Origin: a virus
Virus genome (UHGV): UHGV-1662791
DNA: 21,799 bases
Reading direction: 5' to 3' (one strand)
Part shown: one piece after another, positions 1,037 to 1,927 of the stretch
Layout of the letters: each line of letters opens with the position of its first letter
Position numbering within the stretch: position 1 is the first letter of the stretch
The notes under the pieces: generated by a model
Database searches by the model: none
The model's input: only the letters and a program-made list of their open reading frames with translations
What the model was told of the DNA's origin: nothing
Translations under genes and position numbers: made by a program

Positions 1037-1722
1037 ATACCCAATATTTACAGTATGTCCGCGAGCAACTCATTGTGGCTACCGCTGATTTGAGCGGAGC
1101 AACGAAAGGCCAGCTTGAAGCCTGGCTGGAGCATGCACAATTTGATACTGGTACATACAAACGAAAGAAGCGACGCATTCTGGATGAGGTAACTGGCAAG
1201 ATTATTATGCTGGATAATCCGCCGATTTCCGGTAAGCAGTCGTACGCAAAAGGTTCATCTGTCGCCCTGATCAGTCCGGTCGAGTTTTCAACCTCTTCAT
1301 GGCGCCGCGCTGTTCTGTCTCTCGATGAGCATCAGAAAGCATGGTTGCTGTGGAGTTACAGTGAAAATATTCGCTGGGAGCATCAGGTTGCCATAACGCA
1401 GTGGGCATGGAGCGAGTTTAAGACTCTGTTGGGTACCAGAAAAATTGCAGGTAAGACACTGGAACGCCTGAAGAAGTTGATCTGGCTGGCGGCACAGGAT
1501 GTGAAGAGCGAACTGGCAGGGCGTGAGGCTTATGAATACCAGGAACTGGCGTCACTGGTGGGAGTGACATCAAAAAACTGGTCTGAGACATTCACTGAAC
1601 GCTGGGTTGCAATGAAGCACATTTTTCTACAGCTTGATAGCGAAGCTTTATTGCTTCTAACGAGAACACGTTCAAAACAAAAGACGACATTTTCACAGCA
1701 AAATATTGCAAAACTGGATTAA
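1033..1722 (+). CDS. Putative late-gene antiterminator (Q-like), assigned mainly by position
   Basis: 229 aa ORF with AGGAG RBS (1021-1025). Occupies the canonical Q slot between rusA and the lysis cassette, followed directly by a promoter-like element and an intrinsic terminator. The sequence is not lambda Q and I cannot assign a family from memory. Confidence 0.5.
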   Translation: MNTQYLQYVREQLIVATADLSGATKGQLEAWLEHAQFDTGTYKRKKRRILDEVTGKIIMLDNPPISGKQSYAKGSSVALISPVEFSTSSWRRAVLSLDEHQKAWLLWSYSENIRWEHQVAITQWAWSEFKTLLGTRKIAGKTLERLKKLIWLAAQDVKSELAGREAYEYQELASLVGVTSKNWSETFTERWVAMKHIFLQLDSEALLLLTRTRSKQKTTFSQQNIAKLD

Positions 1723-1734
1723 AAAGCATATATT
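1706..1734 (+). promoter_or_regulatory. Candidate sigma70 late promoter (PR'-like) overlapping the 3' end of the Q-like gene
   Basis: TTGCAA (1706-1711), 17-bp spacer, TATATT (1729-1734); near-consensus -35/-10 located where lambdoid phages carry PR' and the qut site. Confidence 0.35.
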
Positions 1735-1903
1735 TCATATAAATCTGATATTTTGCCAATGTTGTACGCACTGGCAGTAATCCAAATTCAAGCTCGAGGT
1801 TTTAAGCCTTGGGCTTTTCTGTTTCTGGGCGGTGAGTATCCTTCCAACGTACCCCAGACAGGGTGTCTTCAGCTGTTGAGTTGATATTGCTTAACCCTCT
1901 GTT

Positions 1904-1927
1904 GCCAGCTACATGCTGGCTTTTTTA
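1904..1927 (+). terminator. Rho-independent terminator (tR'-like) in the Q-holin intergenic region
   Basis: GCCAGC (1904-1909), loop TACAT, GCTGGC (1915-1920), followed by TTTTTTATT from 1921. Classic GC stem plus U-tract about 190 nt downstream of the candidate promoter. Confidence 0.6.

Follow-up and report, generated by a model that had tools for sequence, protein, structure and literature searches.

A predicted phage 82-type late control region with two tandem terminators and an IsrJ-related leader in a lambdoid prophage

The late promoter of phage 82, 82pR', is known from published descriptions. According to Bird et al. (PMC5001585), the wild-type transcript begins with AAA, leading to stuttering, and the -10-like pause element bears an extended -10, with sigma engagement at an RNA length of 21, indicating that the -10-like hexamer occupies +9 to +14. 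The same study gives GCC at +15 to +17, an AT-rich stretch from +18 to +25, and a paused RNA whose wild-type 3' end is the U at +25; a one-base insertion at +18 places G at the pause end, indicating that +24 is G in 82pR'. Wells et al. located the QBE and pause element of phage 82 within -31 to +30, and short late-promoter RNAs are on record for this phage. The lambda PR'-qut-tR' region follows a like logic: a constitutive promoter directly follows Q, polymerase makes a sigma70-dependent pause near the promoter, Q is loaded, and a terminated leader (6S RNA, approximately 194 nt) precedes the lysis genes. StxS, made in lysogens from the Q-controlled late promoter of Stx phages, arises by processing of a 258-nt leader and is an example of a PR'-tR' leader acting as an Hfq-dependent regulator. 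IsrJ is a 74-nt RNA of Salmonella detected by northern blot and primer extension; its transcription in lysogens was high in every condition tested, and it is reported to affect invasion and effector translocation, the discrete RNA of about 74 nt and its Hfq association having been shown for Salmonella only. In the isrJ literature examined, isrJ was treated simply as a small RNA gene and was not called a late-promoter leader.

In this study, the late control region of a 21,799-nt stretch of viral DNA (UHGV-1662791; hereafter the window) was compared with these systems. ORF and Pfam annotation showed that the first 3.6 kb of the window is the nin/late junction of a lambdoid prophage (Table 1). 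The Q protein matched Pfam PF06323 (E 2.2e-95), named the Q82 family by Yin et al. (PMC9388147), and was identical to phage 82 Q (X92588) at 214 of 229 residues (93%) in a gapless, full-length comparison, the other 15 residues being different. The upstream gene order, orf96(ybcO)-rus-orf45(ylcG)-Q, was common to the window and the phage 82 record. The stop codon of Q is at 1720-1722, and a gap of 310 bp separates Q from the holin gene, which is followed on its 3' side by lysozyme, Rz/Rz1, and then bor on the opposite strand. A search of the whole window with Rfam at gathering thresholds gave zero matches, and a search for tRNA genes found none.

Table 1. Features at the nin/late junction of the window, with positions in the window
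Feature	Position	Strand	Basis or remark
ybcO	250-540		
rusA	537-899		
ylcG	896-1036		
Q antiterminator gene, phage 82 family, 229 aa	1033-1722	+	Pfam, phage 82 Q identity, gene order
-35 hexamer TTGCAA	1706-1711	+	within last Q codons
Spacer, 17 bp	1712-1728	+	candidate Q-binding element; core 1712-1724 = AACTGGATTAAAA
-10 hexamer TATATT	1729-1734	+	just past Q stop
Predicted transcription start AAA (+1 to +3)	1741-1743	+	AAA start published for 82pR'
Sigma70-dependent pause element (predicted)	1746-1765	+	published 82pR' descriptors
Leader hairpin A (+13 to +37)	1753-1777	+	in MFE and centroid folds
T1, first intrinsic terminator	1790-1826 (+50 to +86)	+	fold statistics, comparative pairing
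T2, second intrinsic terminator	1904-1929	+	fold statistics
Weak third hairpin, then CTTTGTCGTT	1937-1958	+	scan listing
Holin, first late gene	2032-2349 (TTG 2032 or ATG 2044)	+	Pfam PF16083 E 8e-22; annotation of homologous records

Given the position of the Q stop codon, the putative late promoter straddles the 3' end of Q, and the phage 82 promoter likewise lies at the Q stop codon. The two hexamers match the consensus at 9 of 12 positions (4/6 and 5/6), and a hexamer-pair scan detected 4 such sites in 6 kb, compared with 6.3 ± 2.6 in shuffled sequences; because this is the chance level, the hexamers alone prove nothing. Context and conservation raise the promoter above chance. In 80 loci picked by Q protein similarity alone, the -35 was TTGCAA in 79, and the conservation picture was the same as in the set collected with a 19-mer, the figures at -35 to -17 and +1 to +38 being partly forced by the sequence-collection patterns. 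The -10 hexamer, which is unconstrained by either retrieval pattern, had 1 of 6 columns variable with a single minor-allele cell, while 4 of the 6 columns that follow it (1735-1740) were variable, with 32 minor-allele cells. The 19-mer itself, TTGCAAAACTGGATTAAAA (-35 plus spacer), was present in at least 120 IMG/VR contigs and was always followed by AAAT(C/T)TG(A/G)TAT. When genome contigs were scanned with it, most matches were chance matches in unrelated taxa, and only that in Leclercia (L018) was real. No promoter-like site was detected at the scan threshold on the + strand from 1735 to the holin gene.

The spacer core at 1712-1724 was nearly invariant in the Q-selected sample and was kept in the Gifsy-1, Leclercia, and 434-type classes. 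Its location fits the interval published by Wells et al., which corresponds to 1710-1770 in the window, and it is a candidate Q-binding element. In Gifsy-1, an unrelated gene has its stop codon directly before the -35, and homology to the window starts precisely with that hexamer, indicating that the functional unit starts at the -35. A natural variant (L046:12987-13266) carries an extra A in the A-run of the spacer, giving 18 bp between the -35 and -10.

With +1 set at 1741, all published descriptors of 82pR' were matched at once: the AAA start, TG (1746-47) extending the -10-like hexamer TATTTT (1749-54, +9 to +14), GCC (1755-57), the AT-rich AATGTTGT (1758-65), G at 1764 (+24), and T at 1765 (+25). 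This predicts a pause at 1765/1766 (+25/+26), and the position-by-position match points to a late regulatory region of the classic phage 82 type. Other features of such a region were also found, namely a Q82-family gene immediately upstream, a sigma70 promoter with an AAA start at the 3' end of Q (at the sequence level), and intrinsic terminators between promoter and late genes. The match rests on text descriptors and not on an alignment, as the phage 82 record X92588 ends at the Q stop; phage 82 DNA downstream of Q was not found in the phage collection, and a literature text search for the 82pR' sequence with TGATATTTTGCC and AACTGGATTAAAA found no relevant paper. TG-N-TAT...T was observed in all leader classes (TATTTT, TATGTT, and TATCGT) despite differing downstream sequence, the variation of the -10-like hexamer being confined to less critical positions. 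In the first-pass annotation, a near-consensus promoter overlapping the end of Q and a start near 1741 had been proposed. Both the promoter and, at the sequence level, a start at exactly 1741 gained support from the 82pR' descriptors, and the promoter also from its conservation; the hexamers are present, but "near-consensus" was a generous term for a match that alone is at the chance level.

Two hairpins followed by U-tracts lie between the start and the holin gene. T1 has a 12-bp stem (1790-1801/1805-1816) with a GC-rich core to C1814, then UUUUCUGUUUCU; in the scan listing, the tail after the 1790-1816 hairpin is TTCTGTTTCT. Its fold had an energy of -15.4 kcal/mol (z -3.5), and none of 200 shuffles was as good. 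Transcripts ending there are predicted to have 3' ends at about 1821-1824, corresponding to RNAs of approximately 81-84 nt. All 12 pairs were intact in every one of 37 distinct window-type leaders, with 3 variable pairs, one of which changed from GC to GU to AU. Over 14 leaders including IsrJ types, T1 was the sole RNAalifold consensus helix, with 9 pairs, 4 of them compensatory and 0 broken. As the U-tract of T1 is interrupted, its efficiency may be partial.

T2 has a 6-bp GC stem (GCCAGC/GCTGGC, 1904-1909/1915-1920), a 5-nt loop, and U6, with TTTTTTATT at 1921-1929 and the tail recorded as UUUUUUAUU. Its fold had an energy of -11.9 kcal/mol (z -4.9), again with none of 200 shuffles as good, and the predicted 3' ends at about 1927-1929 would give RNAs of approximately 187-189 nt. 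T2 was nearly invariant, so that covariation allows no inference, and comparative support was better for T1 than for T2. A strong terminator at 1904-1927, as proposed in the first-pass annotation, was thus borne out by the fold statistics. The RNA of roughly 190 nt proposed with it agrees with the distance from 1741 to T2, but it would not be the sole product, since T1 precedes T2; the view that one promoter and one terminator define a single RNA does not hold, T1 having the better comparative support and being the homologue of the IsrJ terminator (see below).

Other structures in the leader were considered. Hairpin A had 99% of cells paired in the 37 leaders, a stretch partly fixed by the retrieval pattern, and its counterpart in the isrJ model is the first hairpin, two pairs in the alignment being non-standard. 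The helix 130-164 of the MFE fold was poorly supported (83% of cells paired, one pair unpaired in 19 of the 37 sequences), and the hairpin at 1937-1958 is probably not a terminator (z -1.5, 17 of 200 shuffles folding as well). Small ORFs at 1753-1884 (TTG) and 1863-1970 (GTG) were rejected, as they are without an ATG start and run across T1 or T2; the former is also disfavoured by a 1-nt deletion within it in the variant L215.

In a scan of all leaders collected, nearly every 82-type leader class had a hairpin with a following U-tract in the interval +47 to +75, at +47 in the 434 type, +74 in the window type, +69 in the Gifsy-1 type, and +65 to +74 in the others. In several classes no terminator other than this proximal one was found within the first 200-plus nt, and the Leclercia leader had two such elements (+73 and +161).

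In a permissive Rfam search, the full-length isrJ model (RF01393) matched the window at 1738-1817, from the predicted start to T1, with 23.6 bits (E 0.012-0.037), a score below the gathering score of 37 bits. Above that threshold, the model scored Gifsy-1 at 100, L023 at 92, L066 at 83, L042 at 71, and Leclercia at 45 bits, and all five matches sit directly after an 82-type promoter. In Gifsy-1, isrJ (L223:2593-2667) is preceded by TTGCAA-17-TATATT at L223:2561-2589. The L066 leader is a hybrid in which an IsrJ-type 5' half is joined to a window-type T1, the model still giving 83 bits. IsrJ and the window region share the promoter type, the first 14 nt, the first hairpin, the CAAAUUCAAGC motif, the terminator hairpin, and the tail GGGCUUUUCUGUUU, and differ in the hairpin sequences. 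The match in the window also has the genomic position of IsrJ, reaching from the start of an 82-type late promoter as far as the first terminator. T1 (-15.4 kcal/mol) is at least equal in stability to the IsrJ terminator (-12.2 to -14.6 kcal/mol), and the two have identical tails. These comparisons suggest that the segment between +1 and T1 is related to IsrJ but has diverged from it, scoring below the Rfam threshold with graded intermediates between the two, and that T1 is homologous by position to the terminator at which IsrJ ends in vivo. By analogy, IsrJ provides the best available evidence that a promoter of this type fires in lysogens and that its first terminator works in vivo. The connection between isrJ and a late-promoter leader is a modest new link. 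The annotated 5' end of IsrJ is 3 nt upstream of AAA, for which stuttering may, speculatively, be the cause. HnrS, a 66-nt multicopy sRNA of EHEC prophages, was considered as a 434-type leader and dropped, as its paper gives no Q/PR' link and the copy numbers do not fit.

The promoter abuts Q in the window, whereas in Gifsy-1 it is separated from antQ by an isrK-orf45-anrP block (L223:1744-2560, NC_010392), which stands in place of roughly the final 13 codons of Q. The block matched the Rfam C4 antisense RNA and c4-a1b1 models and therefore looks like a P1/P7 immI-type (c4-icd-ant) module placed between Q and the late promoter.

Compared with lambda, the window Q belongs to an unrelated family (PF06323 versus PF03589 for lambda Q). 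The pause is predicted at +25 instead of +16, and the pause element lies 8 bp further downstream than that of lambda, so the region differs from the lambda PR'/6S type, which is defined by a PF03589 Q, a pause at +16/17, and a -10-like element at +1 to +6. In the window there are also two terminators in tandem, of which the first lies at about +82; an RNA ending at T2 would have nearly the length of 6S RNA. By analogy, the region would work like lambda PR' while lying outside the lambda family. The region of phage 434 and the EPEC E2348/69 type, which have a Q82-like Q, shares the -35, the spacer, and the TG-N-TAT pause motif with the window and has TATACT as its -10, and the phage 434 record annotates a terminator just downstream, in a position equivalent to T1. 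Homology to the window ends near +15, however; the terminator there (+31 to +54) is of other sequence, and the downstream genes are different. StxS likewise differs from the window in Q type and sequence, and its function has been demonstrated.

Matches to the region were found in 1160 of 5426 complete E. coli genomes (about a fifth), 790 of which carry most of the region. Approximately 300 E. coli genomes share only the segment up to about +15, and in one leader class divergence sets in after +26. In the prophages L111 and L216, T1 is kept but homology stops right behind it and T2 is absent. In another prophage, L006, whose Q gene is different, homology to the window is limited to 1873-2040, which comprises T2 and the region upstream of the holin; T2 there still precedes the same holin, a G-C pair being replaced by G-U. 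These mosaic joints indicate that T1 moves together with the Q/qut module and T2 with that of the holin, and the regulatory pieces behave as separate exchangeable modules. Joints recurred in related prophages at 1766/1767 (just after the pause site, +26), at 1826/1827 (after T1), and at approximately 1873 (before T2). The same Q-leader-holin region is present in E. coli O157:H7 strains; in Sakai prophage Sp8 (NC_002695.2:1,626,273-1,626,773, ECs_1620/ECs_1621) it is 96% identical to the window and free of indels relative to it, and no literature was found on the Sakai locus tags ECs1620/1621.

Taken together, the region is very probably a classic late switch of the phage 82 type, with Q-dependent read-through of T1 and T2 from a promoter with a pause element. 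Host sigma70 RNA polymerase would initiate at AAA 1741 from TTGCAA-17-TATATT, retained sigma70 would recognise the TG-extended -10-like element (+6 to +14), and the complex would pause at +25/+26 (1765/1766). Q, when made, would bind a DNA site in the promoter spacer and load onto the paused polymerase with the help of NusA, and the Q-modified polymerase would pass T1 and T2 into the holin, lysozyme, Rz, and head/tail genes. In the lysogen, where Q is absent, transcripts would end mostly at T1 (approximately 82 nt, IsrJ-like), and those escaping T1 would end at T2 (approximately 188 nt). We infer promoter activity, pausing, Q loading, and the split of termination between T1 and T2 from homology with phage 82 and lambda. 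The dependence of late genes on Q antitermination, also put forward in the first-pass annotation, fits a Q 93% identical to that of phage 82 next to a start that matches 82pR'. The likeness in size to lambda 6S RNA, to which that annotation had drawn attention, is probably coincidental, and the main short product in the lysogen is probably about 82 nt rather than about 190 nt.

Several other readings of the region were weighed. It is possible, though unlikely, that a single leader of about 188 nt runs from 1741 to T2 as an analogue of lambda 6S RNA, with the 1790-1816 hairpin serving as a structural or pause element that polymerase passes. T2 is the more canonical terminator (GC stem, U6) and is conserved before this holin even where another Q gene lies upstream, the U-tract of T1 is interrupted, and the predicted length is near that of 6S RNA. 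On the other hand, the T1 equivalent, whose hairpin is at most as strong and whose tail is identical, terminates IsrJ at 74 nt in vivo; 82-type leaders have in common a proximal terminator at +47 to +75, the sole one in several classes; and T1 is retained without T2 in L111 and L216. A second reading takes up the short RNA ending at T1 and regards it as a trans-acting regulatory sRNA of the IsrJ kind, working on host or phage mRNAs in lysogens. Homology to IsrJ, with its reported effects on invasion and effector translocation, would favour such a role, as would the precedent of StxS and a leader that is widespread and little changed. Yet the parts conserved with IsrJ are DNA-level qut elements and the terminator, for which Q loading and termination suffice as explanation, and the middle of the RNA differs between leader classes, making a trans-acting role doubtful. 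We are similarly sceptical of its wider form, in which the first 82 or so nt (1741 to T1) would be the E. coli member of a wider IsrJ family, IsrJ itself being a terminated Q82-type leader that acts in trans on host genes. If this were true, about one in seven complete E. coli genomes would make an IsrJ-like trans-acting RNA in lysogens, and the true loading site of Gifsy-1 AntQ would be the isrJ promoter, not that of isrK.

The two remaining readings concern the promoter itself. TTGCAA could be part of a paQ-like, minus-strand antisense promoter (TTGC-N6-TTGC, 1711-1698) that is activated by CII and reduces the expression of Q. The motif TTGCAATATTTTGC occurs here, all variants preserve both GCAA repeats but differ in the 6-nt gap between them, and in the record of phage 434 the equivalent sequence is marked as a CII site and the paQ -35. 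This reading appears improbable, as the window contains 1 match against 1.38 expected by chance, the -10 expected on the minus strand is TCTTTT, without A at position 2, and the repeats fall in the Q coding sequence and the -35, which explains their conservation; it would in any case be compatible with a + strand promoter. That the hairpins terminate only the nin/Q operon, with a fortuitous promoter match and late genes expressed by read-through from PR, is very improbable indeed: the hexamer match alone is at the chance level, but 82pR' is matched position by position, the -10 is constrained while its neighbours vary, and Gifsy-1 keeps the element from the -35 onward detached from Q, with an RNA starting there in vivo.

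On the preferred reading, a late switch of the phage 82 type, the lysis and structural genes of the prophage would be kept silent until Q is made. The late control system of the window is an ordinary one, already known, and as the mechanism is a textbook one, the finding mainly confirms an intact late control region in the prophage. The unit of promoter and first terminator corresponds to Salmonella isrJ, which would tie a virulence-associated small RNA to Q antitermination and suggest a loading site for AntQ of Gifsy-1. In annotation and transcriptome studies, two 3' ends, at about +82 and +188, should be expected instead of one.

Further observations were made on the genes downstream. The start of the holin gene is ambiguous between TTG 2032 (MAIHMHEK...) and ATG 2044, and public records differ on its length, with 318 nt in PhiR47_2 and 306 nt in O157 RefSeq; the two starts may represent a holin/antiholin dual-start arrangement. 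The lysozyme ORF (2336-2812) had no Pfam match at E <= 0.001, and homologous records are annotated as lysozyme R or glycoside hydrolase family 24. The translation of ORF 4022-4471 contains an HNH-like cysteine/histidine motif, and this ORF lies just upstream of ORFs 4588-5082 and 5096-6829, which, by position and size, look like small and large terminase genes in an HK97-like packaging arrangement.
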